Positions 537-25,272 of a DNA stretch of 32,000 bases are shown piece by piece. Position 1 is the first letter of the stretch, and every line of letters begins with the position of its first letter. Below the pieces are notes generated by a model that was not told the origin of the DNA, did not search any database, and saw only the letters and a list, made by a program, of their open reading frames with translations. This stretch comes from Candidatus Saccharimonadota bacterium. GTDB lineage: Bacteria > Patescibacteriota > Gracilibacteria > Absconditabacterales > Absconditicoccaceae. The stretch covers positions 660,001 to 692,000 of the forward strand of contig OZ246420.1 in assembly GCA_965231145.1 (NCBI GenBank). Direction: 5' to 3'. The translations under genes and the position numbers were made by a program.

Positions 537-543
537 ATAATAA

Positions 544-1345: not shown

Positions 1346-1420
<75 letters not shown>

Positions 1421-1433
1421 TCTACATTGTTAT

Positions 1434-1461: not shown

Positions 1462-1475
1462 AATTATTGAGCTCC

Positions 1476-1546
1476 CTGGGGAACTAGGATTCGAACCTAG
1501 ATAGACGGAGTCAAAGTCCGGAGTCCTACCATTAGACGATTCCCCA
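1476..1546 (-). tRNA. tRNA-Gln(UUG)
   Basis: Acceptor TGGGGAA/TTCCCCA plus G73. The body resembles the E. coli tRNA-Gln (TGGGG.ATCG.C.A..GGTA.GGC). Anticodon loop CTTTGAC. Confidence 0.85.
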
Positions 1547-1548
1547 AT

Positions 1549-4328: not shown

Positions 4329-4408
4329 ACTATAACTTAATTTTACATGTTGAAGGTTAAAGGAGCAATACAATATTATACTTAACATTTAACATTTCAA
4401 ATTGAGCA

Positions 4409-5032
4409 TTATTTTCTGATGGCTCCTATGAAGCTTTCAAGGGTCACTTCTCCTTTGATAGATCATTTCTGATAGAGAACATGTGAAACGACCTTCAGTA
4501 ACTTTGTCGTATCAAGCTTTACGCCCGACTGATAGACTGGTTCAAAGTGTATGTATCTTGCAAAAAATGATGGAGTTCATGCGTCGTGCATCAGCACACC
4601 GCCGTTGTAAAGACCTCATGTATAATTGAGCAATCTATTACCACTCCATGTGTCCATGAAAGTAGCACCAGTAGTCGTTGCAGCAATAAAGATCTTATGT
4701 GCCTTACTCATCGCAACGCGAAAACGAGCTCATTCAGTAAATGAACCTCCACAGACTTCCCCATTGTACAGCATACCGTTTTCTAAGGCAGCGATAGCGT
4801 CGGGCTTCAGAAATGCACATTGCCGATCGACTCCTCTTTCAAGATTGGTATCACGTATATTGAAAATCAAATCAATTCCCTCCTTCGCAAGCGACTGAGC
4901 CTGCGTTCTTACCTTCATCGTATCGATGATAGAAATATTTGTCGTAATCACTCTTATGACGGCTAAAATACCGACAGCAAAAACCATCAAGGCAATCAAT
5001 ACTTCGAGTAACGTCATTCAACGTTTGAACAT
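4409..5032 (-). CDS. type IV pilin-like protein
   Basis: Leader MFKR(TGA)MTLLEVLIALMVFAVGIL. The cleavage-site Gly at -1 is the TGA at 5018..5020. Four further in-frame TGA codons extend track ORF 4730..5017 to a TAA at 4409 (207 aa). Confidence 0.8.
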
Positions 5033-6779: not shown

Positions 6780-7844
6780 TTACTCTTCTGGATTATCTGA
6801 TCTCAATCCTCCCTCTTGTTGTATAACTGTGCTCAAGAAATTATACTTCTCTCTCATGCTCTCCGATGTGATATATCTCGCTTCATTATCTTCTACCTCC
6901 TCAATATAGTCAGCTGCTTCTGCGAAAAGAGTAGAAAAGACATACTCTTCGTTCGTTTCATTTTCATCTATATCACCAGATCGCTCATCATACCTTGCTT
7001 CAATATTGCCTCTACAATAGAAAGCGAGTTCACATATTTTTTGCCACAGCCAGTAAGAATATGCATTTAAGGCTCCTAATCTATATTCTGGCATCAGATT
7101 GTCTTTGAGCCAATGTTCATATGTTTCAGACATATTTACTTCAACATCATCGATAATCTCGATCGCTTTTTTTAGTTCTGCTAGCGTGGTAGACTTCCAG
7201 AGCATAAGAGCTGCAAGCGTGTGAGCTTCCCATAGGGGGGTCTCGCTATCATCTACTAGCTGCATCAGGAAACTATCCTGATCTTCTTCATCAATTGGCG
7301 CACGAGAATAAACTAGTTGTTCTAACAACAATGGTGTGATATCTTGATGTTCGAGCACAAAATCCCTAAATGCCTCTGCAGTAGGAAATGCCCTTGTATA
7401 AGACTGTAAGACATATCTGTCTCATATTTCATATCCTACCGTTTCGAAATCATATTCTTCCTTACTTCTGCGCCATTTCTTCCCCTTCTTTACATATGAA
7501 CGACGCATGTTCTTATCTTTCATATCATGCACTATATTTTCTTCCATTTTTCTCATAAAATAGTCAGATCAAAGAAATAATGCCGCTAACTCCTTTTCTG
7601 TTTGCTGAGTTGCACGATGGCGAGACAAGATATTTTTTATTTCTTTAACTAATGGAGCGTGTAAAAGGGACTCTGCCTCATTAAAGCGTATAGGATGAGC
7701 ATTGAACACCAATGCACATGCTTCCTTGGTAAAGAAATTGACGTTATCGAGGCCTTTTTTCTCTATATCAGGAAACGAACCATAACTGGCTGGCAGCAAC
7801 TGTTCTTTCTCCTGCTTTGATTTCATATCTCCTCTTTTTCTCAT
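6780..7844 (-). CDS. hypothetical protein (354 aa, acidic C-terminal half)
   Basis: Track ORFs 7569..7844 and 6780..7358 lie in the same frame and are joined through the TGA codons at 7569..7571 and 7422..7424. No domain recognised. Confidence 0.55.
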
Positions 7845-8445: not shown

Positions 8446-9597
8446 ATGAATAAAGCTTCGCTATCCGCAGATCATAATAGTATCAATAATCAATTATCTG
8501 CAGACACTCAGATTCAACATGCAATTGCATGCATTTTCAGTTCTGATAAAGCCCGCAATGAGGCTTTTTTCAAAAATAACGTATTGAAACTTCCGGAAGC
8601 GAAAGTTATTTTTTTAGAAAATGATTATGACAGACTTATTCCTTCTTTTGTCTGGGATAGTCATAGTCATCACAATGCAAGCGCTGGATATATTGAAAAA
8701 GATGGACTTTGGTGATTTATCGATCAAGATGGAAATGAGATAACCCCACCAAGATATACAGAGCGTCCTTTTTATCACATCACTGCAGATGTGCAAGACG
8801 CCGCTACGGGAAAATATGGTACTGTAGATATTAAGGGACAGACATACAATGAGTGTAAATATGAGTACATTACGAATAGTGACTATAATGTCGCTAAGTT
8901 AGATGGTAAGCGAGGTATTGTCGGTGCACATGATAAAGAGCTACTACCTTTTATCTACGATGATATTTACATAACCCAAGCACACGAAGAACATAAGGAT
9001 GAATTAGCAATTGCTCTCGTGAGAGAAGGAAATAATATCTATTGTATTGATGCGATAACGAAACAACCCATAGCAGTTCCTGAAAAGCGAAAGACGCATG
9101 AAAGGCAGTTTAAGTGAGCTGACAAGAAGTATGGCTTCATCAGTAAGCAAGGATATATTATACCTGCTGAGTTTGATGAACTTTATACATCTGCTAAAGA
9201 GAACAAATATCTTGTCTATCAAAACGATCTACGAAAAAGACTCACGTTAGATGCTATGGGAAATATGCATCTGGATATACTAGATGATGCTATGCAAGCG
9301 AGCTGTCATGAGCGTTATCATCATAAGCAAGAAAGCACAAGTAGTATCCTAGACGAGAAGAATGATTCCACAATAGAATGGTCTATGCCACAAGACCACG
9401 CCGCTGAACTGGAAAATTATAGATGAATAAAAACCGATGATAAGCGAAGCATTGTGAATGAAGGAACAAATGAAATAATATTGCCTGCAAAATTTGATGA
9501 GATCCATCTGCATTATGGCTCTCGCAAAGCATGGTGATGGATAAAACAATGGAATGCTCTTGTAGAAGTTTCATTACCCAAAAAAGCCATGCCATAG
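8446..9597 (+). CDS. WG-repeat protein
   Basis: Four in-frame TGA codons join 8446..8715, 8791..9117 and downstream sequence into 383 aa ending at TAG 9595..9597. Repeats: KDGLW(TGA)FIDQDGNEITPPRY, GK(CGA)GIVGAHDKELLPFIYDDI, KKYGFISKQGYIIPAEFDEL, DK(CGA)SIVNEGTNEIILPAKFDEI. Confidence 0.8.
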
Positions 9598-9629
9598 CGG
9601 CGGGCTTTTTTATTATATATTTTCTTTTA

Positions 9630-9838
9630 CTCCTGCCGGAGGGGCGTCACTTTTTGGCATATCCCTAAAAAGTAACCAAAAAGGTCTAGTCGGATATAGC
9701 ACTACGAGCCTGTGAGTTATTCATATATTGACTACGAAGTATTTCGCTGTCGCGCACATCACAGCGACTCCAGCTCAATACTACCATTCCTATCATCCCT
9801 CAAGACCGTAAAGAGGAGACGTGGGGTATATCCGACGA
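9630..9838 (+). ncRNA. Unclassified structured-RNA-like element, copy B
   Basis: Same architecture as copy A. 5' hairpin CTCC-TGCC-GGAG. Hairpin pairing 9646..9655 with 9667..9676. Long-range helix GTCGGATATA (9689..9698) with TATATCCGAC (9827..9836). Identical 22-mer at 9717..9738. Preceded by a TATATT box and followed by a terminator. Confidence 0.45.
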
Positions 9839-9867
9839 ATAAGAATAGATTTTCATGTTAGGTATAA

Positions 9868-9895
9868 CAAAAAACTCGACATATGCCGAGTTTTT
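9868..9895. terminator. Bidirectional hairpin terminator
   Basis: AAAAAACTCG-acatatgc-CGAGTTTTT. An A-run and a T-run flank a GC-containing stem. It lies between ncRNA copy B (+) and the VTC gene (-). Confidence 0.5.
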
Positions 9896-9903
9896 CCTTC
9901 CTT

Positions 9904-9938
9904 AATTTTGCTCTTTGATCTCTGCTCTTTGAATTAAT
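9904..9938. repeat. Degenerate heptamer array (5 units)
   Basis: aattttg ctctttg atctctg ctctttg aattaat. Its first 14 nt are identical to 1441..1454. Confidence 0.65.
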
Positions 9939-10822
9939 TAGAAATCCTTGAGCTTCACATGTGGTACACGTGCAAGCTCTTCTTTGACTTCAAGAAGTTT
10001 CTTTTGTACTTTTTCCACTGTGTTGATTTCTTTATGATGGTGCTTATCGATAAACTTAATCGTTTTCTCAAATTTGTCATGGCTCTTCATTCTACCGAAA
10101 TAGTAGACACCAAGACAGTATTTGCTACAACCTGAAGCAGCTTTAATCTTCATCTTCTTCATGAGCTTTGTACTATATCCATTTGCTGTAGAAGATTTAC
10201 TTTCAACAATAGCCACATTACTAAGTTTTATGGTGCGAGCTGAAGGATCTCTGAGATCGTTGAGTTCTACATCGAAGTCGATCGTCAATCTTTCGTCGTT
10301 CGTCTTAGAACAAAGCGTAATACGCTTACATTTTGTCTTAATAGATGGCATGATCTCTTCCTTAGCAAAAGGAAGCCCCATAGACTGACACAAAGACGTA
10401 TAAAATCTCTTGGCGTCTTTGTTCATTACACCGTGCCCCTCTACTCCACATGGATAACGGAACTTACGAATCACTTTTCCTTCTTTTTGCTTCATTTCAA
10501 AGTATGCAAGATCTCCGCTATCAACATAATGTCTCGTTCTTATCTTAATTCTATTTTCTTCTCCCTGCTCATGTTGCTTATAGAAAAGATAATCTTTCGT
10601 ATCCATATAGATGCTATCGTACGTGAAAATATTAACATCTTTGATCGTCAATACATAGAACTTATCCTGAAGCGCAGAAAGAATCTTATCGAGCTGTGTG
10701 AGGTCAATAAGGTATTTTGTATCAATACGCTCCAAAAAACTCATAGAAGCATTGAGCTGATCAAGAGAGATAGTTGTATACTCCTGAAGAGCCTGTGCAA
10801 AATGTTTCATTTCCTTATTCAT
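9938..10822 (-). CDS. VTC-domain (polyphosphate polymerase-like, CYTH-related) protein
   Basis: Start taken at MNKEMKH (ATG 10822), inside the longer track ORF. ERIDTKYLI, IRTRHY and YFEMKQK strands fit the VTC/triphosphate-tunnel pattern. 294 aa. Confidence 0.6.
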   Translation of the reverse strand: MNKEMKHFAQALQEYTTISLDQLNASMSFLERIDTKYLIDLTQLDKILSALQDKFYVLTIKDVNIFTYDSIYMDTKDYLFYKQHEQGEENRIKIRTRHYVDSGDLAYFEMKQKEGKVIRKFRYPCGVEGHGVMNKDAKRFYTSLCQSMGLPFAKEEIMPSIKTKCKRITLCSKTNDERLTIDFDVELNDLRDPSARTIKLSNVAIVESKSSTANGYSTKLMKKMKIKAASGCSKYCLGVYYFGRMKSHDKFEKTIKFIDKHHHKEINTVEKVQKKLLEVKEELARVPHVKLKDF

Positions 10823-11045
10823 GGTCGTCCTTTTGTTTACCCATATAAAGCAGTTTCGTAACAATAGCTTATTATATAGGAAGATCTTGGCGCATGCGAA
10901 AAAGAGACAAGAAAATGAGGGAAGCACAGAAAACAACCATTGACATATCATATTAAATATACAATGATGTTATTTATTCTCAAAAATGGCTAAAATCAAT
11001 CTACAAAAAAAGCCCACCTTTATAGTGTAGCTTCTTATTATTGCT

Positions 11046-12848
11046 TTATGAACCAATAAGTCCGTTCTTCTTTGCGAGCGCTCTCGCTGACTCCGTGAGA
11101 TATTTCTTTCTCAGACGGATATTTTTCGGGGTGATCTCTACGAGCTCATCCTGACCAATATAGCCGAGCGCATCTTCTAATGTAAGATGCACGATCGGCT
11201 CGAGGCGCATCGCCTCGTCATTTCCACTGTTACGTACATTTGTCAGCTGTTTATTCACCGTAAGATTGACGACCAGATCTCCACCTTTGAGATGTTCTCC
11301 TACGATCATACCTTCGTAAATCTGCTGAGCTGGATCCACGAAGATAGGTCCTCTTTCCTGAAGTTTAAAGATACTGTAATTCATGACTCCTCCGGTATTT
11401 CCTGAGATCATTGAACCAACATCACGCTTCGCAATTTCACCTCTAAAAGCATCATACTGAGCAAATGATGAGTACATGATACCCTCTCCTCTGGTAACAA
11501 GAATAAACTCACCTCTCAGACCGAGCAATCCTCTCGTAGGAATATCAAATTCTATCGTCGTGAGACCATTTTCTGAGTTCATAGATTGCATCATCCCCTT
11601 ACGGTTTGCAATCATCTCGATAATCGCTCCTGAAAGATGATCTTCCACATTCACAATAAGCTGTTCAATCGGCTCGAGTTTTTCACCATCCACCGTCTTG
11701 AAAATCACCTGTGGTGGTCAAACCTGAAGCTCCCAGCCTTCTCTACGCATCGTTTCAATAAGCACCGACAAGTGAAGCTCTCCTCTTCCTGATACGATAA
11801 AACGACCATCTTCATTTTCCACTTTCAGTCCAACATTTGTCTCAAGTTCTTTATCGAGTCTCTCTGCAAGATTTCTTGTCGTCATATACTTTCCCTCCTT
11901 CCCCGCAAATGGACTGTCATTTACCAAAAATTCCATACGAAGAGTTGGTTCATCAATAGAAATAGCTGGCATCGCTTCAAATTCTCCTACTCCAATAGTC
12001 TCTCCTACGAAAATATTTGGTATCCCTGAAATAGTGATGATATCACCGCATCTGGCCTCAGATGTCTCTACTCTCTGGAGTCCAAGCGTTGTAAAGATCT
12101 TCACGATTTTCCCTGTTCTTTTCACACCATCATTTCCAATGATAGAAACCTGCTGACCTGCTTTCGCTGTCCCTTCATACACACGACCGATACCAAGTCT
12201 TCCTAAGAAATCATCATATCCAAGATTTGCGATCTGCATACGAAACGGCTTCTCCGGATAATTTGGCGCTTCTGGCACATAGGTGAAAATAGCATCAAAT
12301 ACTGGCGTGAGGTCTTTTGGTTCATCACCAAGCGCCTTGAGAGCATAACCGTTTTTCGCGCTTGCGTAAACAACATGAAAATCTGCCTGCTCATCACTTG
12401 CTCCAAGCTGGATGAAAAGATCAAAAAGCATATTGATAACTTCCTGAGGTCTCGCTGTAGGTTTGTCGATCTTATTGAGAATCACTATAGGCTTGAGCCC
12501 GAGCTCGAGAGATTTCTTCAACACAAACTTCGTCTGCGGCATAGGACCTTCATAAGCATCCACCACAAGAAGTACGCAGTCAACCATACGAAGTACGCGT
12601 TCTACCTCACTTCCAAAGTCAGCATGGCCCGGGGTATCGATAATATTGATCGTATTTCCCTCGTAAGTAACTGCTGTATTTTTTGCATAAATAGTAATAC
12701 CTCTTTCGCGCTCCTGATCGTTACTATCCATAACAAGATCCTGACCTTCGATAGTCTTAAGTGTTCAAGACTGCTTCAAAAGCTGGTCAACGAGAGTCGT
12801 TTTCCCATGGTCAACGTGAGCAATAATAGCAATATTTCTAATAGCCAT
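11046..12848 (-). CDS. typA: translational GTPase TypA/BipA
   Basis: 600 aa after joining through the TGA codons at 12765..12767 (LLKQS-G-T) and 11718..11720 (ELQV-G-PPQVIF). Carries AIIAHVDHGKTTL and DTPGHADFG, and is colinear with E. coli BipA to the C-terminus. Confidence 0.95.
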
Positions 12849-12898
12849 TCATTTAAACTTAAAAGTAAAATCTCAAAACTGAAAATTATTTTTAGTGT

Positions 12899-12925
12899 TG
12901 AGAAAAGCCCTCCGAGAAGGGCTTC
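12899..12925 (-). terminator. Putative terminator after the antiporter gene
   Basis: Stem AAGCCCT/AGGGCTT with a 6-nt loop, then a U-rich tract on the minus strand. Confidence 0.4.
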
Positions 12926-12989
12926 AAGAACCAATACACATTGATTGGTTTGATTATAAGAAAACCAAGGTGAAAAGCAATGTGTTTGT

Positions 12990-13919
12990 TTATATTTGTA
13001 TTCCACCTAACGTATATATTACATACACCACATACAGCAAAATAAACACTATTCCCTGCCACCTTTGTAAGACTTCTTTTTTCCCAAATATAAATGCAAG
13101 CCAAAGTAATAAAGTCACGCCCACACAGATCAGGATATCAATCCATCCATGGTAAGGAATTGAAAGAGGGACAATAAAGCCTGTAATAGCAAGTATAACA
13201 ACGATATTTAATACATTTGAACCAACTATATTTCCAATAGCTATATTATTATTGCCTTTCCATGCTGCGACAACAGAAGTAACAAGCTCTGGCAAAGATG
13301 TACCTACTGCAACTACAGTCAATCAAATCACTCTTTCTGTCATACCAAACAATTGTGCCAATGCTATAGCTCCATCAACAACCCGTTTACCACCTACAAC
13401 CAGCAATGCAATTCCCGCCAATATATATAAGATTGTTTTCTTTGTTCCTATAGAGGAAACATGCTGATCTTCAACATTTCCTGCTCTAAAAATATAATAG
13501 ATAAATATAATAAGAAACAAAACCAAAACGCCTGCGTCTGCACGACTTAATAGCCCGTCATAAGTCAACAATGCCAATCACACAACTATCATCAAAGCAA
13601 GAGGAATGTCTCATACTCTTGTCTGACGATTAATAACCAAGGGAATAATAACTGATGTTATACCTAGTATAAGCAAAATATTTGCAATATTACTTCCTAT
13701 AATATTTCATACAGCCATATCTGTAACTCCATGGGTTGCAGCAAGTACATTTACGACAAGTTCAGGCAGTGAAGTACCCAATGCCACTAATGTTAACCCT
13801 ATAATCATGGGCGAAATACGAATTTTATTTGCCAATGAAGAGGCACCATCGACGAGCCAATCTGCACCCTTTACCAAAAATATAAAACCAATAATGAATA
13901 ATATATATACCATACTCAC
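12990..13919 (-). CDS. CaCA-family Na+/Ca2+ exchanger (YrbG-like)
   Basis: The three track fragments plus the sequence between them join into 309 aa. Two alpha-repeats GTSLPEL. (TGA)NIIGSNI with the TGA at 13707..13709, and ERVI(TGA)LTVVAVGTSLPE. Confidence 0.85.
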
Positions 13920-13948
13920 TCTATAAGAATAAAAACGTCTGAGAGTAA

Positions 13949-14512
13949 TTATTTTGTATATCTAAAGCAAGAAACAAGATGATCATTAACTACCCCTATG
14001 GCTTGTAGGTGTGCATACACGGTTGTAGAGCCAAGAAATGAGAATCCGCGTTTTTTCATGTCTTTTGCTATGGCATCGGAAAGTTCACGAGTTGGTTTAT
14101 AGTCGCTCATGTCTTTAATTTTATGATCAATAACCTCACCATTGGTAAAGGACCAAATATATGCATCGAATGAGCCAAACTCTTTTTGTACCTCCAGAAA
14201 TGCTTTTGCATTTTTGACTGCAGCATGGAGTTTTGCTCTGTTACGAATGATGCCCGCATCATGCATCAGTTCTTCTATTTTTGCTTCATCGAACTTCGCA
14301 ACTTTTTTCGCGTCAAATGACGCGAAAGCCTTACGATAATTTTCACGCCTGCGCAGTATGGTTAGCCAAGAGAGTCCTGCCTGCATGGTTTCGAGTAATA
14401 AAAATTCGAAATGTTTCTTTTCATCGTGCATGGGCACTCCCCGCTCTTCATCGTGATAACGGATATACAAATCGTCTTTTAGACATCGAGAACAACGGCT
14501 CACTCAGTTCAT
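13949..14512 (-). CDS. tag: DNA-3-methyladenine glycosylase I
   Basis: 187 aa, aligning without gaps to E. coli Tag: RC..-x-...LYI.YHD.E-x-GVP, QAGLSW, IIRNR, NDH..C. The two x positions are CGA (14486..14488) and CGG (14441..14443), opposite Tag W6 and W21. Confidence 0.85.
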
Positions 14513-14640
14513 AAAGTAGAAAGTTAAAGGTTTATAAAATAGATAGAGATTCTAGACAGAGATATAGGTCTTTCCTCTGTCTCTATCTCGCATCTCTATC
14601 CGATAAATATAGTCTATCAGAATATATATTTCTTTATTAA

Positions 14641-14666
14641 TAAGAAAAGAGAGATTGCTCTCTCCT
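14641..14666 (-). terminator. Rho-independent terminator after the DUF1761-like gene
   Basis: The minus-strand RNA reads GAGAGA-GCAA-UCUCUC followed by UUUUCUU. Confidence 0.5.
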
Positions 14667-14709
14667 TTATTGATTTACGTTCTAAGTTTTTAGATTTTAG
14701 TGAGTAAGA

Positions 14710-15099
14710 TTAGATAGTCACGAGAACTGCTGCTGATGCAAGAAGGCAAACGAGATTGCAAAATACGGTGATCCACATACCTGTTACGTTTCTGTTTTCC
14801 CAGACCTGAGTACTCCATGCAGTGATAAGAGAGAATCCAAGCCACAAGATACCAGCTGTCATAAGTGCAGGATTCATGGTTGTTACGCCCTGTGAGTTAA
14901 GTACCCATGAGAGAGCCCATACCTGGATGAGTCCAAAAATAAACTGAAGAACCATAGTAAATGCCATACCACCTTTGTTACCATCGTGATGAGGCATAGA
15001 TTTCATGTACATCTTTCCGAAGAGTACTGGAGAGTACCAAAGCATACCGATAATAAATGACACTACTGCTGCAACGATTAGCGCTGTATAATTCATCAT
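14710..15099 (-). CDS. small integral membrane protein (DUF1761-like)
   Basis: 129 aa with 4 predicted TM helices. The N-terminal LWYSPVLFGKMYM block resembles DUF1761. Confidence 0.45.
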   Translation of the reverse strand: MMNYTALIVAAVVSFIIGMLWYSPVLFGKMYMKSMPHHDGNKGGMAFTMVLQFIFGLIQVWALSWVLNSQGVTTMNPALMTAGILWLGFSLITAWSTQVWENRNVTGMWITVFCNLVCLLASAAVLVTI

Positions 15100-15210
15100 A
15101 TGATATATAAGGATAAATGATAAAACGGCTTCATTTCCCTTGACCTTACGCTTTGTGCTATTTCCTTATTGTATAGTAACTTTATAGCATTGTGCAAGAG
15201 ATTCTTATAA

Positions 15211-15245
15211 ACTAAAATCTTAATACTAAAAACTTAAAACCTCAT
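15211..15245. repeat. Degenerate heptamer array (5 units)
   Basis: actaaaa tcttaat actaaaa acttaaa acctcat. Confidence 0.55.
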
Positions 15246-15271
15246 AAGAAGCTTTAAGTTTTAGATTTAAA

Positions 15272-16063
15272 TTATTCTATACCATATACCACATTGACTG
15301 AAAGCGTGAATACCATCTGCCCAGGAGCAAGCTGTGAACTTTCAGGTCCACCGCCCATACCTGCAGCCATATCCATCTTAGCATTTTGTGCATACATAGG
15401 GATAGGCTGATAGCTCATAACTACATCACTAATAGATGATACTTTACCGAGACGAACATCTGCGAGATCTGCAAGTTGGTCTGCTTTTTCTTTTGCCTTT
15501 GTATATGCGAGTCTTCTTGCTTCTTCATAGATCTTATCCTTGTTATCGATATCATACTGCGTTGAGTTGATCTGAGCCCCTTCTACAGCAGTCACCGCAT
15601 CCATGATCTTTCCGCTTTCCTCAAGCTTTCTTACTGTCACTGTTAACTGTTGGTTTGCATCGTATCCTTTTGGAATTGATCTTTGTCCATCATACTCATA
15701 GTGAGGATACATAGAAATATTTGTTGTCTGGATATCCTTATCAGCGATACCGGCGTCCTTGAGTGCTTTTCTGATAGACGAGATTTTTACGTTAGCGTTT
15801 TGAAAAGCCTCCTTTGTTGTCATAGCAGTCTCATTGACTGACACATTGAAGATGAAAATATCCGGTGTTGCATAGACTTTTCCTTCACCATTTACCGCGA
15901 TACTATTTGTTACAAATGGTTGGTTACCAACATTGCTTGTGGTGACATTGTTCTTCGAACCACCTGCGGTGATTGCAACGATCACAATAATAACAATAGC
16001 AAAGATGACACTCAAAATAAGATTATTTCTCATAACGTTGCTTGTAGAAGTTGTCTCGTTCAT
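15272..16063 (-). CDS. SIMPL-domain (BP26/DUF541) protein with N-terminal anchor
   Basis: 263 aa. One TM helix, then GEGKVYATPD...V......T..EA...N...I..I...L...GI..KDIQT......P.Y and a C-terminal ...V.V.Y.I, typical of SIMPL. Confidence 0.7.
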   Translation of the reverse strand: MNETTSTSNVMRNNLILSVIFAIVIIVIVAITAGGSKNNVTTSNVGNQPFVTNSIAVNGEGKVYATPDIFIFNVSVNETAMTTKEAFQNANVKISSIRKALKDAGIADKDIQTTNISMYPHYEYDGQRSIPKGYDANQQLTVTVRKLEESGKIMDAVTAVEGAQINSTQYDIDNKDKIYEEARRLAYTKAKEKADQLADLADVRLGKVSSISDVVMSYQPIPMYAQNAKMDMAAGMGGGPESSQLAPGQMVFTLSVNVVYGIE

Positions 16064-16177
16064 GGGTAAACATACATATAAAAGATAAAAGAGTGATTGA
16101 TGACCTTATAGTCATCTATAGAACGACGTGCAAGAGCATTATGTGACAACTTTTAACTTACTTACTAATTATAGCAG

Positions 16178-16240
16178 TTAGATGTTGGATTTTAGATGTT
16201 AGCATTTTTTTGCTATAATCTAACATCTATAATCTAATTG
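16178..16240. repeat. Degenerate heptamer array (9 units)
   Basis: ttagatg ttggatt ttagatg ttagcat ttttttg ctataat ctaacat ctataat ctaattg. Confidence 0.7.
16191..16219 (+). promoter_or_regulatory. Candidate promoter with extended -10 (TGCTATAAT)
   Basis: TGcTATAAT at 16211..16219, with a weak -35-like TTTAGA 17 nt upstream. It sits upstream of the plus-strand membrane protein gene. Confidence 0.3.
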
Positions 16241-16306
16241 CCATTTTGGATGGATTTAAGACGAATTACATATATAAGTAAATATTTAGATGAGCAAGAT
16301 AAAACG

Positions 16307-16759
16307 ATGAAAGAAAAGATAGCGCAAGCAAAACAACTGACAAAGCAACATATCGACAAGAAGCTCAGAAATAAGATGATCGTCTATTTTGTGGTATCGC
16401 TGATTATGCTTGGAGTTATGATCTACGAGATCACCATAGATGGCGTCGATGCATGGATGACACTTCTTGCGATGGTTATCTGAGTATGACTCGGATCTAT
16501 TACTCATCGTATCTTTCATATCTCCTGGCATGAGGATGAACAAAAAGTCGTTTCTCGCGTCGATCGCACATGAGCTATCATCCTCGTGGTCTATATACTC
16601 TTTTCTATTTTCAGAAGCCAAATCATCGCTTACTTTTTCCAGGGGCCCACTGTCCTTGCTGTTACCATCTCTCTCGTCTTCGGTCTCATGGCCGGCAGAA
16701 TCTATGGCATGAGAAGAAGAATCATCAAAGTTCTGAAGGAACAAGATGTTTTAGGGTAG
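16307..16759 (+). CDS. 4-TM membrane protein (hypothetical)
   Basis: With 3 TGA=Gly codons the frame runs to TAG 16757..16759 (150 aa) and gives four clean hydrophobic helices (VIGVGLGSI, GAIILVVYILF...). The start is uncertain: ATG 16307, or ATG 16250 upstream. Confidence 0.5.
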
Positions 16760-16762
16760 TTT

Positions 16763-17041
16763 TTACTTATAAATGTTTTTTCTATGTCCTATAAGCCCAA
16801 CTATAATCATCCTCCCCTGTTCATCAAAATCAACTATGATACGATAGTCTCCTATGCGATATCTATATGATCCGTATGCAAAATTTACTACTGCTTCTGC
16901 GTAGGCTTTAGGATTTGGCAACGAAGCATAGTATTCTATCTTTTCTTTTATTCTTTTTTGCGTTGTTCTTTCAAGTTGTTGTAAATACCTTAATACTTTT
17001 GGTTTTATTTCTATTTTTCGAGGCATTGATTTTTTAGTCAA
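16763..17041 (-). CDS. relE: RelE/ParE-family type II toxin
   Basis: C-terminal YRYRIGDYRIIV....G...I..IGHRKNIY is the RelE/StbE signature. The maximal ORF starts at TTG 17041. ATG 17026 is an alternative start. Confidence 0.75.
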   Translation of the reverse strand: MTKKSMPRKIEIKPKVLRYLQQLERTTQKRIKEKIEYYASLPNPKAYAEAVVNFAYGSYRYRIGDYRIIVDFDEQGRMIIVGLIGHRKNIYK

Positions 17042-17279
17042 GACCTAAAATCTTTTTTGCTTCTTCCCGAGGTATACTAGGTTCTTTTCTCGCTTCTTCT
17101 AACTCTTTCCAAAAATTCTTTGAATTATACATTTCCGCATCTTCCTTGCTTAACCTAGGAATAATCACGAAATCCGGATGATTTCTTTTACCCAGCAAAA
17201 GTGGCTTACGTTTATATTTCACCTCGTCAAGATACGTAGCCATATTTTTACGGAACTCTGCGATAGAAATTGTGTTCAT
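17034..17279 (-). CDS. Phd/YefM-family antitoxin
   Basis: 81 aa. MNTISIAEFRKNMATYLDEV....PLLL is the Phd/YefM N-terminal pattern. It lies immediately upstream of relE and abuts or overlaps it. Confidence 0.7.
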   Translation of the reverse strand: MNTISIAEFRKNMATYLDEVKYKRKPLLLGKRNHPDFVIIPRLSKEDAEMYNSKNFWKELEEARKEPSIPREEAKKILGLD

Positions 17280-17303
17280 GGTAGTTAATAAGCCAATTAA
17301 ATA

Positions 17304-17327
17304 TGTACATTATGTACATAATGTACA
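17304..17327. promoter_or_regulatory. Putative TA operator: three TGTACA palindromes at 9-bp spacing
   Basis: TGTACA at 17304, 17313 and 17322, 25 to 48 bp upstream of the antitoxin ATG. Confidence 0.5.
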
Positions 17328-17452
17328 ATATTGCAAGAGAAAAGAAATCAGAAAATATCTATTAATGTAAAAATAGCTCATTACAAGATAACGTAATGAT
17401 TAAGGATAAATAATTTAAAATAGTGAGAATATGCAAAGAAATGTATTTATTA

Positions 17453-17809
17453 TTATGAGTTTATAGCATCTTCACTGATCTCCTGCACAAGATCTCGCAT
17501 CTCTACGATCTTATCATCAGCAAATTTGAGAATATGTATTACTTTCAATCCTTTATGCTCAGGAGTAAACTTCAACACACCATAGACCATGACGCGTCCA
17601 TCTTCTTCGATGATCATATCGATCGTATACTGCTTCTCTGGAAAGTGATCTTGGTTTCACTGCATTCCTTTGATGAGCTCTTCTCTTCCTGGCTTTGTGT
17701 ATTGATTATGATGCACAAAATCCTGAGCAACATATACATCAAATGCCTCCTGTATCTTTCCTCCTATGATCATAGTCAGAAACTGCTGTGCAATATTTTT
17801 GTGTGTCAT
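17453..17809 (-). CDS. NTF2-like (SnoaL-like) family protein
   Basis: Not in the track because of one in-frame TGA. 118 aa: MTHKNIAQQFLTMIIGGKIQEAFDVYVAQDFVHHN......G...........IDMIIEEDGRVMVYG......H....V.HILKF.DDKIVE, the SnoaL fold pattern. Confidence 0.55.
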
Positions 17810-17830
17810 ACTTTCTCTCATCAATAAAAA

Positions 17831-18247
17831 TTATTGTGCAGTACTCTCTGCATGCATCTTAAAGTTATCTAATATAGCTTGCCAACCTGCTTTCTGTTGT
17901 TCTACCGGATAGACATTTTCTGCGTCGAAAATTTCTGTTACCTTAGTTGCATCTCCCATGTCTTCAAATGAGACAGTTACTTTTCTTCCGTCTGCCATAG
18001 CGTACTCTATGCGCTCATTTTCTTCTACTACAGAATAAACACCACTAAAATCAAAACTTGCGCTACCATCTTTTGCGGCCATAGTGGTGACAAATGTTCC
18101 ACCGACACGAAGATCATTTGTAGCAGCTGGTGCATGCCAGTCATCAGAAGCAAAAGCCCACTGCATGATATCTTCAGGATTATTCCATGTAGCCCATACA
18201 TGATCTACCGGAGCTTGTACGATAGTTGAGACGGTGATTTGGGTCAT
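17831..18247 (-). CDS. SRPBCC-superfamily protein (AHSA1/START-like)
   Basis: 138 aa. I.AP...VW..W..PE....W, then GG.F......DG.....F.G.Y..V..NERI.Y, typical of the Aha1-like domain. Confidence 0.65.
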   Translation of the reverse strand: MTQITVSTIVQAPVDHVWATWNNPEDIMQWAFASDDWHAPAATNDLRVGGTFVTTMAAKDGSASFDFSGVYSVVEENERIEYAMADGRKVTVSFEDMGDATKVTEIFDAENVYPVEQQKAGWQAILDNFKMHAESTAQ

Positions 18248-18275
18248 AGGAATTCTTACATTATAAAATAAAAGA

Positions 18276-18794
18276 TTATTGTAACTGTTTAGATTTAAAC
18301 AAAGATAGCTTTTGTTTAATAGATTCTATTCTTTCATCTTTCTCATCTAACGATTCTATTATTTTACCATATTGATATATTACTTCACTATAGTTTCATT
18401 GTTTTTCATATTCATTCGCTAAAATCACCCTCTCAGTAATGCTAACTCAAGGTTGTCTAACTAAAGAAAGCAAATGATTGAAACTAATAAGTATGAATAT
18501 TGCTATTCCTGAAATAATCTGAAGGAAATAGGTCGGTTGTACAAATAATAAAATTACTATAAAAAGTGCCATAAATAGATAAAAGCCATATACGAAAACA
18601 TGATTGAATGTAAGTTTATAAGATTTGATTTCGACTTTTTTATGAAACAAAGAAATAATTAATCCGATCACTAGTCCTAAACAAATAAATCCTCCATATA
18701 GAAGATATTGACTATACTGAGGAAAGGCGTCTTTGAATCATAAAAAGACACCTATCGTACCGACTATTCCTGTAACAATCGAGAATGCATTCAT
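18276..18794 (-). CDS. membrane protein with C-terminal coiled coil (hypothetical)
   Basis: Three TGA codons extend track ORF 18447..18671 in both directions to 172 aa. Four hydrophobic helices, then a charged helical tail. Confidence 0.5.
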
Positions 18795-18820
18795 TTTATA
18801 AGAATTATATAATAAATTGA

Positions 18821-19282
18821 TTACTTCCCCTTCTCACTGATCTCCTTCAACACTTCTAACGCCTTAGGCCACGCACCTTCCATAAAGATCTGGAAACTTT
18901 CATCTATATCAATATCTACGCCTACTGTTGTTACTCCTTCCTGTTCTGAAAAAGTATAATTTTCATGTGCTCCAATCCATGATGCGTTCTCACCAGCAAT
19001 AATCTCACCATTGCTGATCTCGGCTTCATGTCTGAGTGAAATAAACTCATATGGTTTATTTTCTTCTACTACTGCCAACATACCTCCGGTCTGTGTTGGA
19101 TCTTTTGGATCTGGTCAGATGAAACGCATTTCTGATCCTTTTGACCAGTCACCTTCGTACCAAGAACCTGCTGGATTGAACGGAGCCGTCCACTGCTTAT
19201 ATGTTTCAGCACCGAGCATCATATCCCAAACTTTTTCTTTAGGAGCATTAATTTCGATTGAGAAGTGTGTTTTCTTCAGCAT
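18821..19282 (-). CDS. SRPBCC-superfamily protein (AHSA1-like)
   Basis: ATG 19282. One TGA (MRFI-G-PDP) joins it to track ORF 18821..19081, giving 153 aa. I.AP.EKVWDMM......WT.PF......EGDWS.GS..RF. Confidence 0.6.
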
Positions 19283-19362
19283 GTATATATAAACAAAAGA
19301 TAAAAGATATTTTCATTCGTAATTCGATGTTCGAGTATCGAATCAATGGTTACTCCTTGCTT

Positions 19363-19397
19363 AATTTAGCATTTCGAATTTATAATTTAGAATTATT
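19363..19397. repeat. Degenerate heptamer array (5 units)
   Basis: aatttag catttcg aatttat aatttag aattatt, directly 3' of sufB. Confidence 0.6.
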
Positions 19398-20791
19398 TAT
19401 CAGACCGATCCTTCCATCTCCATCTCCACTAATCTATTCAGTTCTGCTGCATACTCCAGTGGCAACTTCTTCACAATAGGCGAAATGAATCAGTTCACAA
19501 TCATCGCCATGGCTTTTTGTTCATCGAGACCACGAGCCATCATGTAGAAGAGTTGGATTTCATCAACTCTTCCAGCACTTGCTTCATGTGCAACTGTCGC
19601 GTCATCTGTTCATACATGGATATGCGGGATTGTTGTACTGACTGACTTATCATCGAGTAGTAATGCATCACACTCGGTCGCGTTCACTGCTCACTCTGCT
19701 GTAGCCTTGATATCCACGATACCGCGATAGGTAGAAATACCTCCGTCTTTACTGATAGATTTTGAAATAATCGTCGAAGACGTGTGTTTACCCAGGTGAA
19801 TAATCTTACTACCGGTATCCTGATTTTGTCCTTCGTTCGCAACCGCAACGCCAATATGATCAGCCTTTGAGTAATCTCATTTGAGTATCGAACACGGATA
19901 GAGCATGGTCGTACATGAACCAAGATTTCCCCCGATCCACTCCATATATCCATGAGTTTCTACAAGTGAACGCTTGGTATTCAAATTATACGTATTGAGC
20001 GACCAGTTCTCGACCGATGAGTAACGCATATGACTGTTCTTGCCTACAAAGATCTCCACACAACCTGCATGCAGCGACTTGCTATCGAACTTTGGCGCGC
20101 TACATCCTTCGATGTAATCGCCTGTAGCATCATCATCGATAATAATAAGCGTATGCTCAAACTGTCCGCCACCATAGGTGTTCATACGGAAGTATGCTTG
20201 GAGCGGTTCTGTCACTTTCACGCCCTTTGGCACGTAGATGAATGTTCCACCAGACCAGACGGCTCCGTGAAGTGCCGCAAATTTATGGTCCTTACTCGGA
20301 ACCAGTTTCATAAAATACTTCTTCACAAGCTCCGGATGCGTGAGCAATGCTTTCGACATATCCTCAAAGATTACTCCTTTCTCTGCCCATTTCTCTTTAA
20401 TATTATGATAGACTACCTCAGCATCGTACTGCCCTCCTGCTCCGGCAAGATATTTCTTTTCCGCTTCAGGTATCCCGAGTCTTTCAAATTTTTCCTTAAT
20501 CTTCGGATCAATCTCATCCCAGTTTTTCGTATACCCCTGAAAACCTTTTTCCGGGCGTGCATAGTAGACGATCTCATCAAGATTCAATCCTGACAGATCC
20601 GGTCCCCGGCTCGGCATCGACATCTCATGGAATATCTTCAGCGATGCCAATCTATGTTCCAGCATCCACTCTGGTTCTCCGAGATCTGCAGAAATTGCCC
20701 TTACATTCTCCTCAGAAAGTCCTGTGAGATGAATCGCATAGGGTATCGTATCGTGTGAATCTATAGCTGATTTGAGTTCGTTTTCGGTCAT
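19397..20791 (-). CDS. sufB: Fe-S cluster assembly protein SufB
   Basis: 464 aa, colinear with Bacillus and E. coli SufB. Five TGA codons, four at family Gly positions (CSILK-G, AE-G-A, MIVN-G-F, C-terminal EMEGSV-G). The last TGA is followed directly by TAA (19397..19399). Confidence 0.95.
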
Positions 20792-20803
20792 GATTTATCT
20801 AAT

Positions 20804-21646
20804 CTAAAACTTATCCTGTCTTTCATTTTCATTAAGCGTCTTATTATTATCATCATACCGCTCGTTGTATCCATTCGAATTCCTTCAAAGAATAATATTT
20901 GATGCTCAGCTTGGAGACTTGAATGTATAGTTTTGAGTAAACTCAAATGATTGATCATCTATCATTTTAATAACTCACAAATCAAATAGTTTTGTTTGCT
21001 GATTTTGCACATAAGGAATAGAAGCTTTAGGAATATCTTTTCTTCACTTAGATCCAGCAAGAACTACTACTCATTCTGCAGAATATATTCATTTTCCCGA
21101 TGCTGACGGTCAAGTGCAATGATATATTTTTAGCTGCTTCGTATCAACATCCGGCGTCTTGAGAATAGGATATCCTACGCTTGAAATAAGTAAATCTATG
21201 TCTTCTATAAAATCATTTAACACCGATTCTTTATGCAAAGATAGTTTTTTATAAGTAGGTTCTGTTTTATTCATGAGCTGATATCTTTTTGCTTCTTTTG
21301 CCTTAAGTATAGTTTTATATTCTAGATAAGTCACATCTCCAAGATCTAGTGTATTATTATCATATACAAATCATATAGCCACATCTCGATAATCCTTCTT
21401 CATAACATGATCTTTCCACCTTTTAGCAAGATTATCTGTTTGTCCAATGTATACAATTTCGTCAGCATTTTCATTAGATCCAAACAAAAAGTATAATCCG
21501 GTATGCGATGCTCATTCTACTTCAGCAAACTCAGACAATTTTTTTCTTGGCACGACAAAACACTTAATAGATTTTCCTGGCATATCCAGTATCTTTATTC
21601 AGGAATATGTTCCATCAATGAGAAATGTGATCAGTGTTTTTGCCAT
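20804..21646 (-). CDS. GIY-YIG nuclease family protein with DUF4357-like C-terminal domain
   Basis: 280 aa after reading at least 12 in-frame TGA codons. GLYFLFG....EIVYIGQTDNLAKRW.DH (GIY-YIG). C-terminal GS..R......SPSGASNIILGRNSNGY.E.Y...NKTL matches my recollection of DUF4357. Confidence 0.7.
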
Positions 21647-21719: not shown

Positions 21720-22292
21720 CTATACCTCCACAATCAGCTTCTTTTTTCCATCTACTTTTCCCCATATCTGAACTTTTGAGGTATCAACTTCCAATGCTGT
21801 TCCTATTGGCAATGCTTCACAGACCTCTTGCCAGATGATACCAAGTCTATCAAGATTGAGCGTAAACCATCGAAAGAAATTCCATGAGTCTTCTATCTCA
21901 AGTAAGCTGACATGCATTGCTTTGGGTTTATCTAAGAGATAGGGGATCTCAATGCCTTTCTCAAGTTCGAGATGAGGAATGTTTTTTCTATCTACATTGC
22001 TTGTCCAGGCATTCATCTTTACCAGATCTAATGTATTTCCATGTTGTTTCTTTGCTAAAACACTAGCAATATATGCTGCTATATCTGCGACTTTCCCTTT
22101 ATACTCCAATGTCATATGATAGTTTGGAATCGTCACACGAGCTTTTTCTTCTGTCGGAATATCATTCATAGCGTCTATAATGCTTTGTGAAATTTCACCA
22201 AGAATCTTCAGAGACTCTGGCGTCACAGCATAACAAGCATACACTCCTTCTATTGTTTTTCCTTCATACTCTTCCATGGCGATATTATACAT
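21720..22292 (-). CDS. hypothetical protein, possible 2H phosphoesterase fold
   Basis: 190 aa. Two H-x-(T/S)-x tetrapeptides, H59-M-T-L and H137-V-S-L, 78 residues apart as in LigT-type 2H enzymes. No other support. Confidence 0.3.
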   Translation of the reverse strand: MYNIAMEEYEGKTIEGVYACYAVTPESLKILGEISQSIIDAMNDIPTEEKARVTIPNYHMTLEYKGKVADIAAYIASVLAKKQHGNTLDLVKMNAWTSNVDRKNIPHLELEKGIEIPYLLDKPKAMHVSLLEIEDSWNFFRWFTLNLDRLGIIWQEVCEALPIGTALEVDTSKVQIWGKVDGKKKLIVEV

Positions 22293-22855: not shown

Positions 22856-23176
22856 TTACTCCTGTCTTCTTCGACCAAATTTTTTCATGTCAACAGTATC
22901 ATTTATCACAGGAATTTTTTCTTTTTCAAGCAGCATTTTATGTCTTAGTCCCCTTTCTCCAAGTTTCAGTGTCGGTAAATATCATTCTTTATTGATAACA
23001 CGCCACCATGGATAACGCACCTGTTCTTCTGCATTCATGCCACTTAAAATCTTTCAAACCATCCGGCCAGATGTTTTGATGCCATAGTCGACATCTAAAA
23101 GCTCCGCAACATGACCATAGGTCGTCACACGGCCATATGGTATAGATGTCATGATTTCCATGATCTCTTGTTTCAT
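22856..23176 (-). CDS. MGMT-family DNA-binding protein, alkyltransferase-like (no active-site Cys)
   Basis: Not in the track (2 TGA codons). 106 aa: IPYGRVTTYGHVA......MV-G-KIL......YPWWRVINKE-G. PWWRV replaces the PCHRV active site. Confidence 0.65.
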
Positions 23177-23205
23177 CTTACTTCTATTAACTAAAAACAT
23201 TGCAA

Positions 23206-23261
23206 CTAGCATCTAGCAAGTAGCATGCTATATGCCAATTGCTATTTGCTACCTGCTGATT
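23206..23261. repeat. Degenerate heptamer array (8 units)
   Basis: ctagcat ctagcaa gtagcat gctatat gccaatt gctattt gctacct gctgatt. It overlaps the last codons of uvrC. Confidence 0.7.
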
Positions 23262-25272
23262 TGGGTTTCGGTTTTTTCGTTGTCCGCTCACTGCTCATCT
23301 GTTTCTTTCTATATGCATTTGCAAATCTATGAGCTTCATCGCGAAGCGATGTCAAAATTCTATCTGCATCATCGTAACAGAGCTCTTTTTCTACTATGCG
23401 AAATGAGTCATCGAACATATATATCTTCTCTTTCGCTCACTTTGTCTTTCCTCTCCTCTCTCTCGCTTCTCACTTTCCAAGTGATACGAAATGCACCTGC
23501 TCATATATCTGACGAAATGCAGCAGAGCTTTCATATAACTCTTTCACAATACCTAACTGTCCCTTTCCTCCGTCGATCACAAACACATCGGGCAAAAACT
23601 CTGGATGTTCAACATTACTATCGGATGATTCTTCTGTATTTGATTTTGAATTCTGAACTTTGAATTTTGCATTGCCGACAAGGCCGAATCTTCTGGTGAG
23701 TACTTCTGTGAGTGACGCATAGTCGTCTGATTGCAAAAATTCTCAATTCTCTGTGCTCAATTCTCAATCCTTATTTAATTTAGAATCTAGAATTTCGAAT
23801 TTCGAATTATTTTTAGTTCATTTAATCTTATATCTTCTATAGCCCTTTTTATTGGGAAGCCCCTCTCTCATGGCGCTTAGTCCTCCACTCACCCATCATC
23901 CTGACAAGTGCGAGATATCTAGACACTCCACATTGTACGGAAACTTTTTAAACTCATATCTCGTGTGCAACGTCTTCAAGAGCTCATTCATCAGATTGTC
24001 TTTCTCAAATGCACTCGTGAGCACATACGCATCGATACTCCTTTCGAGTAATGCTATGATCTCCTGGAGCGGTTCGTTTAATATACGCTTATCCGTTTCG
24101 ATACCAATCATCGCACCATCCTGTTTTTGTTCATCACATGTCACTATATCCGGGCAAGGCGTCAGCTTGCCATCCTGCCAGTAGTTCCAACTCAGTTCAC
24201 CGATCTCACGATTGAACGCACTCATGAGTGAGGAAACATCACCATCATTTTGATGTTGTTTATAACGAATAATATCAATAATTTTTCCCTCATACAGCTT
24301 AACCACACAGCACACTCGCCGTTCACCGATCTCTTTCACTTCCACGATATTTCACGTCACTGGACGTGACAGAACAACGTTCTGTTTTTCTGTTACCAAG
24401 TCGATCTTGCTATACATATCTCTTATCTGCGCAGCGTATTCAAAGCGCTGTTTTTGCACAGCATCTTCCAAGCGTTCAAGGATATAATCTTTTAATAGTT
24501 TGATTCTTCCTCCAAAAAAGTCTGTCAGTAATGCAACTATTCTCTTATATTGCACCTTCGATGCTGGATAATCATATTTTTCTATAAATCATATCCTCTT
24601 TGCTTCCTGCAAATACTTATTCATCTCACCGGACGCAATATATTGCGTCCCTACATCATCGGCATTTTTTATTTTTCATTCTTTATTTTTTATTTTTAAT
24701 GCATTAATATCTATCATCTTCAATTTCTCATTATTTATTTTAAGTTTATTGTAGACGCACCAACCTTCACAGAGACCAAAGAAATAGTCAGAGCAGAGTT
24801 TTCCTTCGTGAAACTGCACTTTTTTGCAACCTCTGTATTGAAATAGTTGGCGAAAAAAGTGGAGCATCTCGCGAACATGTCTCGTGTTACTCTTCGGTCA
24901 AATATATGTCGATCCGTCGTTGTCGCGAAACCTTGTCAGAAATATTTGCGGATATTCTTCATTGGTAATCTTGATATATGCATAACTGTTATCTGCTTTG
25001 AGCAGGCTGTTATACGGAGGCGTATGTTTCTTAATAAGATTGTCTTCCAGAAAAAGTGCTTCGCTTTCTGTCGTAACGATATGAAATTCAACTTTGATAG
25101 CATTGAGCAGCATATCCTGTTTCCAGACCGATCACTTTTGAAAATACTGAGCAAGTCTATTTTTTAAGTTCTTCGCTTTTCCGATATACAAAATCTTCCC
25201 ATGCTCATCAGAAAAGATATAGACGCCGGGCTTTGTAGGTATATTCGTAAGATCGGTCAGACGAAGTGCCAT
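23242..25272 (-). CDS. uvrC: excinuclease ABC subunit C, with low-complexity inserts and no C-terminal (HhH)2 domain
   Basis: At least eight in-frame TGA codons, one frame, 676 aa. GIY-YIG ([26 protein letters not shown]), UVR-like (FEYAAQIRD), [31 protein letters not shown]. Ends about 25 aa after RDEAHRFA. Confidence 0.9.
23642..23676. repeat. Degenerate heptamer array inside uvrC (5 units)
   Basis: gattttg aattctg aactttg aattttg cattgcc. Same word family as 1434..1461 and 9904..9938. Confidence 0.6.
23742..23811. repeat. Degenerate heptamer array inside uvrC (10 units)
   Basis: ctcaatt ctctgtg ctcaatt ctcaatc cttattt aatttag aatctag aatttcg aatttcg aattatt. Confidence 0.7.

Follow-up and report, generated by a model that had tools for sequence, protein, structure and literature searches.

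CGA and CGG very probably encode tryptophan, in addition to UGA encoding glycine, in a 32 kb stretch of an Absconditabacterales genome

The question raised by contig OZ246420.1 is which amino acid is encoded by the codons CGA and CGG. A stretch of 32 kb of this contig (positions 660,001 to 692,000 of the forward strand, in the following called the window) was analyzed, and open reading frames (ORFs) were called with UGA as a sense codon. The 30 genes obtained in this way were mostly located on the minus strand and contained 83 in-frame UGA codons. An earlier reading of the sequence, in the following called the original prediction, had proposed on the basis of seven codons that CGA and CGG have been reassigned from Arg to Trp on top of a reassignment of UGA to Gly. 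Three independent lines of evidence support this proposal. CGA and CGG are interchanged with TGG in close relatives and never with AGA, AGG, CGT or CGC; Trp is found at the respective columns of profiles and homologues from organisms outside the clade; and a Trp-like transfer RNA (tRNA) with the anticodon CCG is present in four SR1 loci that belong to the reassigned group. It is thus very probable that CGA and CGG specify Trp and UGA specifies Gly in this organism. Arg is encoded by CGU, CGC, AGA and AGG only, and UGG is the main Trp codon, while CGA and CGG make up about one fifth of the Trp codons. This code is already known, and the window is a further instance of it, not a new phenomenon.

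All seven codons of the original prediction were indeed CGA or CGG, two on the plus strand (+) and five on the minus strand (-). The first two are in the gene for Tag (13949-14512). An ungapped alignment with Tag of E. coli (1lmz) placed the CGA of residue 9 (14486-14488, -) opposite W6 and the CGG of residue 24 (14441-14443, -) opposite W21 in the motif 'YHDNEWGVP', exactly as had been proposed. The next example was SufB (19397-20791), in which the CGG of residue 62 (20606-20608, -) is opposite the W of 'EPHW' in SufB of E. coli (5awf). The GIY-YIG/DUF4357 protein (20804-21646) contains two of the codons, i.e., the CGA of residue 87 (21386-21388, -) in the motif 'KDFW' and the CGG of residue 263 (20858-20860, -), where the Pfam family DUF4357 prefers W. 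The proposal that both are Trp positions of the family was borne out, and W was found in 39 of 39 homologues at either site. The last example, the WG-repeat protein (8446-9597), was less strict. The CGA of residue 156 (8911-8913, +) is at the anchor of the internal repeats, and the same was found for the CGA of residue 334 (9445-9447, +) by internal repeat alignment and by the shift of the Pfam score. However, the anchor is occupied by W or Y, and the evidence at these sites points to an aromatic residue more than to Trp in the strict sense that had been claimed.

The codon usage of the window was also in agreement with the original prediction, which had described in-frame CGA and CGG as rare. 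CGA was found 21.8 times and CGG 12.6 times per 10,000 codons. Together they amounted to 34 per 10,000 in frame versus 92-265 in the other five frames, i.e., a 3- to 8-fold depletion. The guanine plus cytosine (G+C) content of the window is 38.5%, and AGA, with 191.5 per 10,000, is its predominant Arg codon. Conserved Arg motifs used the other codons CGC, AGA, CGT and AGG, for example CGC and AGA in RDEAHRFA, CGC in YRG, and CGT in IPRPETE, and TGG remained in use as the main Trp codon.

A SufB-based scan of the GTDB collection, with one genome per species, yielded 80 loci for comparison. Every gene of the window was aligned to the loci of the relatives, and the aligned codons were then read. 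The closest relatives, L004 (JAGOPC01) and L005 (JAUIDC01), share synteny over much of the window and have SufB identities of 90% and 87%, respectively; their records are labelled 'Patescibacteria group bacterium' and 'bacterium'. In these two loci, window CGA and CGG codons were opposite CGA or CGG in 11 cases, opposite TGG in nine cases, and never opposite an Arg codon. Window TGG codons paired with CGA or CGG 21 times, with TGG 54 times, and again never with an Arg codon. The picture was reversed for window AGA, AGG, CGT and CGC, which were opposite Arg codons 160 times and not once opposite CGA, CGG or TGG. The pairing of codon classes was highly significant (Fisher p = 4e-15), and from this table it follows that CGA and CGG act as synonyms of TGG and not as synonyms of Arg codons. 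Counted the other way, none of 188 window Arg-codon positions was aligned to CGA or CGG, and none of the 35 CGA and CGG codons of the two relatives was opposite a window Arg codon. For the window and its relatives, the correspondence between codon and residue was demonstrated.

The comparison was extended to all 80 loci, and they could be split cleanly. In 27 loci CGA and CGG were found on Trp codons of the window and UGA at Gly columns, and this group includes all loci labelled Absconditabacterales or SR1. Within it, window TGG was opposite CGA 98 times and opposite CGG 30 times, and only a single CGA, in L009, was opposite a window Arg codon. The SufB proteins of metagenome-assembled genomes labelled Absconditabacterales or SR1 (the labels are record titles) were 65-72% identical to that of the window, with 68% for RAAC1_SR1_1. 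Three loci labelled Gracilibacteria (L023, L028 and L035) had UGA on Gly columns, but CGA and CGG on Arg columns. The remaining 50 of the 80 loci used the standard code; in these outgroup loci window UGA was opposite Gly 239 times, while TGA or GGN was found within the clade. At the SufB site described above, the 80 loci had TGG 52, CGA 16, CGG 2 and TTY 10 times, and the 50 standard-code loci had W in 41 and F in nine cases. The Gracilibacteria-labelled loci show only the change of UGA, and, thus, an order in which UGA was reassigned before CGA and CGG would fit the distribution of codons. This order has been discussed previously (PMC8629427). A separate observation concerns the length of the SufB match, which was about 2.0-2.1 kb versus 1.38 kb in several Peregrinibacteria and Peribacteria loci (L024, L029, L033, L036, L047, L049, L061 and others). 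This suggests an insertion in these sufB genes, which is possibly an intein.

An evaluation with Pfam profiles was performed in the style of Codetta, and all CGA and CGG sites of seven proteins were set to R, W, F, Y, K or G. W gave the best score for Adenine_glyco, which covers both Tag sites (R 253.7, W 265.7 bits, +12.0), for DUF4357 (R 44.8, W 56.2 bits, +11.4) and, with a small difference, for Na_Ca_ex (R 206.7, W 207.8 bits, +1.1). For WG_beta_rep the score was raised from 31.9 bits with R to 35.1 bits with W (+3.2) and to 35.8 bits with Y. The two profiles that scored higher with R than with W, DNA_binding_1 and Glucosaminidase, are treated below together with the respective sites.

A census of the 30 CGA and CGG codons at the ORF level revealed support for Trp or an aromatic residue at 16 of them, including a mixed site in the Atl-like protein and a site in a pilin-like protein that is based on alignments of low identity. 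One further codon was suggestive, nine were without an informative comparison, three were upstream of probable start codons, and one was discordant. At several sites that appeared Arg-like by eye, i.e., the tandem and the tail of UvrC and the C-terminal site of the Atl-like protein, the relatives revealed aromatic columns. In UvrC (23242-25272) the CGG of residue 318 (24319-24321, -) was TGG in five of five relatives (L004, L005, L072, L007 and L009) and is read as Trp. The adjacent CGA of residue 319 (24316-24318, -) was CGA in L004 and L005, TAT in L007 and L009, and TAC in L072, and is thus aromatic. The CGG of residue 663 in the basic tail (23284-23286, -) was TGG in L005 and L072, TTT in L007 and L009, and CGG in L004, in line with Trp or another aromatic residue. 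The CGA of residue 114 of the Atl-like protein (22856-23212; codon 22871-22873, -) was TGG in L004 and L005 and is read as Trp. At the two Tag sites, the relatives had TGG (L004 and L005) at W6, and CGA (L005) or CGG (L004) at W21.

The next sites are in an overlapping pair of genes for a Phd/YefM antitoxin and a ParE-family toxin (16763-17279, -). L004 also has this pair, whereas L005 lacks it at the syntenic position. The CGG of residue 71 of the antitoxin (17034-17279; codon 17067-17069, -) is W in P0310, a protein with 79% identity ('PSIPWDEAKKILGLE'), and is read as Trp. In the toxin (16763-17041) a CGA (17018-17020, -) specifies the third residue that follows the likely Met start. It is also CGA in L004, and an N-terminal alignment by eye placed it opposite Tyr in P0312 and P0313, while P0314 was ambiguous, so that an aromatic residue is indicated. 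In the Na/Ca-exchanger family protein (12990-13919) the CGG of residue 179 (13383-13385, -) is CGA in L005 and probably encodes Trp; the first internal repeat, 'GADWLVDGASSLA', can be compared with 'GGK?VVDGAIALA'. The CGG of residue 70 of a pilin-like protein (4409-5032; codon 4823-4825, -) probably also encodes Trp, and was TGG in L007 and L009 at 30-32% identity. The suggestive site is the CGA of residue 263 of the WG-repeat protein (9232-9234, +), which is possibly the anchor of a degenerate repeat, as judged weakly from its repeat position alone.

The nine sites without an informative comparison include two that are conserved as CGA in relatives. These are the CGA of residue 4 of PrmC (25861-26760; codon 25870-25872, +), which is CGA in L005, L007, L009 and L072 and at which alignments with PDB entries stop short of the N-terminus, and the CGA of residue 141 of a hypothetical protein (21720-22292; codon 21870-21872, -), which is also CGA in L004. 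The others are the CGA codons of residues 7 (3418-3420, -) and 48 (3295-3297, -) of the Ctp S41 protease (2152-3438), the CGA of residue 215 of the WG-repeat protein (9088-9090, +), the CGA of residue 288 of a hypothetical protein (6780-7844; codon 6981-6983, -), and three codons of a second pilin-like protein (3774-4388), namely CGA of residue 125 (4014-4016, -; ACA in L007 and L009 at 25-27% identity), CGG of residue 171 (3876-3878, -) and CGA of residue 188 (3825-3827, -). Three further codons are probably not translated. A CGG (12912-12914, -) is upstream of the TypA/BipA start, as the alignments of the relatives start from 'MAIRNIAIIAHVDHGKT' and the upstream stretch is interrupted by a stop codon in L009. 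The VTC-domain gene probably starts downstream of a CGA (10856-10858, -), and the homology in L007 and L009 sets in behind this codon, near an internal Met. A third codon, CGA near the 5' end of the ORF 16238-16759 (16262-16264, +), is probably also in front of the start, as judged from the ORF, which has a TTG start and an internal 'MKEKIAQ'.

The third line of evidence concerns the tRNAs that could decode CGA and CGG. ARAGORN and Rfam were used for the window, and Logan contigs for extensions to the left and right. Four loci of the reassigned group contain a tRNA with the anticodon CCG, i.e., L016 (3714-3787), L020 (3877-3949), L022 (2498-2570) and L074 (2232-2304). All four have A1:U72, G2, G3, G73, U20 and A37, and they resemble the tRNA-Trp(CCA) of L069. 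For comparison, a tRNA-Arg(CCG) from Thermotogae has G1:C72, A20 and G37. According to published criteria for Trp acceptors (G73 and no A20, with A1:U72 as supportive; PMC8629427), the four tRNAs are predicted to accept Trp. To judge from its clade membership and the table in PMC8629427, the window organism probably possesses such tRNAs as well, together with a UCG partner for CGA. The genomic neighborhood of the four tRNA(CCG) genes is conserved: they are directly upstream of nth and a gene for a membrane protein, pilB/pilC-like genes adjoin, and the distance to sufB is 6-8 kb. Neither the window nor L004 or L005 shows this arrangement, and a search for Nth homologues with at least 120 matches did not reveal a recognizable copy of the window's lineage among the matches listed.

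A pattern scan for Trp-like tRNA(YCG) in metagenomes yielded 103 CCG tRNAs, 91 of them with A1:U72 and 97 with G73; the pattern itself fixes U20, and the result is thus not an unbiased survey. Many of these tRNAs are from Firmicutes-type tRNA arrays, directly beside tRNA-Trp(CCA). In the metagenome contigs L106, L113, L117, L125, L132 and L172 the distance between Trp-like tRNA(CCG) and tRNA-Trp(CCA) is about 130-210 nucleotides. For the Firmicutes-style tRNA(CCG), an origin by duplication in lineages that reassign CGG only would fit.

A mechanism for the change of meaning can be proposed from these elements. A low G+C content would make CGA and CGG rare and would thereby allow their capture. 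The tRNAs with the anticodon CCG, and according to the literature also UCG, would carry the identity elements of tRNA-Trp, i.e., A1:U72, G73, U20 and A37, and U20 of the Trp-like tRNA(CCG) would replace A20, a determinant for arginyl-tRNA synthetase. Tryptophanyl-tRNA synthetase would then charge the Trp-like tRNAs, which would read CGG and CGA, and no Arg-accepting tRNA would read either of the two codons.

Several observations weigh against Trp as the meaning of CGA and CGG. The first group concerns the decoding apparatus. A tRNA with the anticodon UCG or CCG was not found for the window organism itself, in a search that covered the window and flanks of 9.4 kb on the left and about 3 kb on the right. 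Nine tRNA genes form a cluster in the window (Glu, Asp, Thr, Val, Asn, Leu, Gln, Met and Gln; 270-1547, -), in which ARAGORN and Rfam detected no tRNA for Arg or Trp and no tRNA-Gly(UCA), and the Logan extensions on both sides contained no Arg, Trp or YCG tRNA. The metagenome scan revealed no convincing Trp-like tRNA(UCG), but 20 heterogeneous UCG matches. In addition, the searched literature contained no confirmation of Trp at CGA or CGG at the peptide level.

The second group consists of two codons on Arg columns. The discordant codon of the census is the CGA 31307-31309 (-), residue 196 of a glucosaminidase-like protein (31151-31894), and no other CGA or CGG of the window is on a column that is clearly Arg. 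The peptide across the codon is 'GKAV?TNNPGNVGNTDDGSTR'. The family search was performed with a fragment of 90 residues that is free of UGA, and among 152 representatives the column had R 94, K 25, S 13 and W 1 times (the codon of this W was not checked), so that S, G, N, Y and T are tolerated as well. The weak match to the profile Glucosaminidase gave 22.4 bits with R, 20.9 bits with W, and 23.2 bits with K. Four homologues on SR1-type contigs with UGA as Gly (L084, L209, L210 and L211) use AGA at this column. The same four have CGG or CGA at the Trp column of the family, a column with W in 128 of the 152 representatives, and the combination of CGG or CGA at the Trp column and AGA at the Arg column confirms the code for these organisms. 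At the Trp column the protein of the window has Leu (TTG), and its gene contains no TGG at all. The CGA might either be a replacement of Arg by Trp, for which one change from AGA to CGA is enough, or a hint of residual ambiguity. An assembly error was rejected as an explanation, as the codon is identical in L207 and L208, two independent assemblies of the same population.

The other site is the CGG of residue 50 of the Atl-like protein (23063-23065, -), which is opposite the Arg of '...SYARQVG...' in Atl1 (3gva). Pfam prefers R by 5 bits at this position (DNA_binding_1, R 48.9, W 43.9 bits, R best). Among the relatives, L005 and L072 had TGG at this column, L004 had CGG, L017 had AGA, and four other SR1 loci had CAG or CAA. 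The Arg of Atl1 is the intercalating Arg39 finger. Judged from these codons, the residue at the finger position is not conserved as Arg in the clade.

Both sites are the main points in favor of an incomplete or ambiguous reassignment, in which CGA, and perhaps CGG, would mostly mean Trp and sometimes Arg. This could arise from a tRNA(UCG) charged by both synthetases or from competing tRNAs, and some CGA codons could then be retained at Arg positions. As stated in PMC8629427, only experiments can exclude ambiguous translation. However, the absence of any crossing over between Arg codons and CGA or CGG in the comparison with L004 and L005 speaks against it, as does the finding that among the 27 reassigned loci just one CGA is opposite a window Arg codon. 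In addition, a single Arg-to-Trp replacement on a tolerant column explains the codon 31307-31309, and the nearest relatives have TGG at the Atl-like site. Ambiguous decoding is therefore improbable, although it is the alternative that survives best. If it were true, the organism would represent a living intermediate stage of a sense-codon reassignment.

Much less can be said for the standard meaning, according to which CGA and CGG are Arg and many conserved Trp residues were replaced by Arg in this lineage. It is the default expectation, and just the two Arg-column sites agree with it. Under this meaning interchange with Arg codons would be expected, yet the comparison with L004 and L005 revealed none and instead 30 interchanges with TGG. 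Family-invariant Trp residues, i.e., W6 and W21 of Tag and both sites of the DUF4357 protein, would all have become Arg, and the tRNA(CCG) of the clade lacks A20 and has Trp features. Substitution of Trp by Arg under the standard code was rejected, and the comparative data refute it as far as such data can; its probability is negligible. Editing of C to U in the mRNA, which would turn CGG into UGG, as exists in plant organelles, and would make CGG as Trp an appearance of the genome only, could account for CGG at Trp columns, but was rejected as practically without likelihood, because CGA would become UGA and thus Gly, yet CGA is found on Trp columns (W6 of Tag, the 39/39 column of the DUF4357 protein, and 22871-22873), because the clade has a dedicated Trp-like tRNA(CCG), and because bacteria are not known to have such an editing system.

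NCBI translation table 25 (SR1, Gracilibacteria) keeps CGA and CGG as Arg. The window shares with it UGA as Gly, and the in-frame UGA codons of the window are mainly on Gly columns. The difference is in CGA and CGG, which are on Arg columns in the three Gracilibacteria-labelled loci, but not in the window and the 27 reassigned loci. The code that matches is the one predicted with Codetta for Absconditabacteria by Shulgina & Eddy (eLife 2021, PMC8629427), with support from tRNAs, low G+C content and the rarity of CGA and CGG, and the reference to this screen in the original prediction was correct. That CGA and CGG were reassigned to Trp is treated as documented in a 2026 NAR paper (PMC13092985) and in a preprint of the same year (bioRxiv 10.64898/2026.05.03.722492). 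As in the window, CGA and CGG are on Trp, UGA is Gly, and CGU, CGC, AGA and AGG are Arg. The G+C content of 0.385 in the window compares with 0.26-0.38 reported, CGA and CGG are seldom used, Arg is mainly encoded by AGA, the clade has a tRNA(CCG) with G73 and no A20, and the SufB relatives of the window include genomes labelled Absconditabacterales or SR1. The window organism is not among the genomes of the published table, and the best species representative has 90% identity in SufB. In-frame CGG reached about 12 per 10,000 codons in the window versus less than 7 in all but one of the species of PMC8629427, a comparison of counts that were made differently.

Two further systems can be compared. 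In Anaerococcus and in the RFN20 Bacilli ('Onthovivens') a tRNA(CCG) with Trp identity also captures CGG at low G+C content (PMC8629427; PMC13092985). They differ from the window, however, in that CGA stays Arg, a tRNA(UCG) is lacking and UGA terminates translation, whereas in the window CGA and CGG are read as Trp and UGA as Gly. Mycoplasma capricolum (Oba et al. 1991, cited in PMC8629427) is similar in its rare CGG, its low G+C content and the loss of the Arg decoder, but CGG is unassigned there, whereas it is used with a new meaning in the window. An unassigned CGG of this type is a proposed intermediate of codon capture (PMC8629427).

Pfam matches in the window identified the Ctp S41 protease, the two pilin-like proteins, CYTH, WG-repeat and VTC-domain proteins, TypA/BipA, the Na/Ca-exchanger family protein, Tag, DUF1761 and SIMPL proteins, the Phd/ParE toxin-antitoxin pair, two AHSA1-like proteins, SufB, the GIY-YIG/DUF4357 protein, the Atl-like protein (MGMT DNA_binding_1), UvrC, PrmC and the weakly matching glucosaminidase-like protein. 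The gene rpsT for the ribosomal protein S20 (634-900) is inside the tRNA cluster 270-1547 (-). On the left side, L085, a Logan contig from the window's own population, has a gene for a protein with metallo-beta-lactamase fold and a tRNA-Met gene, followed, just past the left end of the window, by genes for two integrases and a PemK toxin and by a large restriction-modification gene (N6_Mtase/Eco57I/Methylase_S). This stretch looks like an island that adjoins the tRNA cluster. At the other side, the ORFs 26777-29761 (-) and 29801-31123 (-) are adjacent paralogues of 994 and 440 amino acids with a common N-terminus, for which no Pfam match was found. They contain no CGA or CGG and only two UGA in 1434 codons, compared with 34 and 95 per 10,000, respectively, on average in the window. 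Recent acquisition and high expression are possibilities for this odd codon usage.

Taken together, the window adds an independent confirmation of the code by codon interchange between close relatives, beyond the columns of profiles. The warning of the original prediction that standard translations carry wrong residues was justified. Translation with table 11 breaks genes at UGA, and both table 11 and table 25 give Arg for Trp at about 27 codons in 32 kb, i.e., at about one fifth of the Trp positions, including the family-invariant residues W6 and W21 of Tag, the SufB site, and both sites of the DUF4357 protein. Database proteins of the clade carry such errors, and homology searches, structure prediction and conservation analysis are affected. 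Reassignment from sense to sense is very rare in free-living bacteria, and in this lineage it is stacked on the reassignment of a stop codon.

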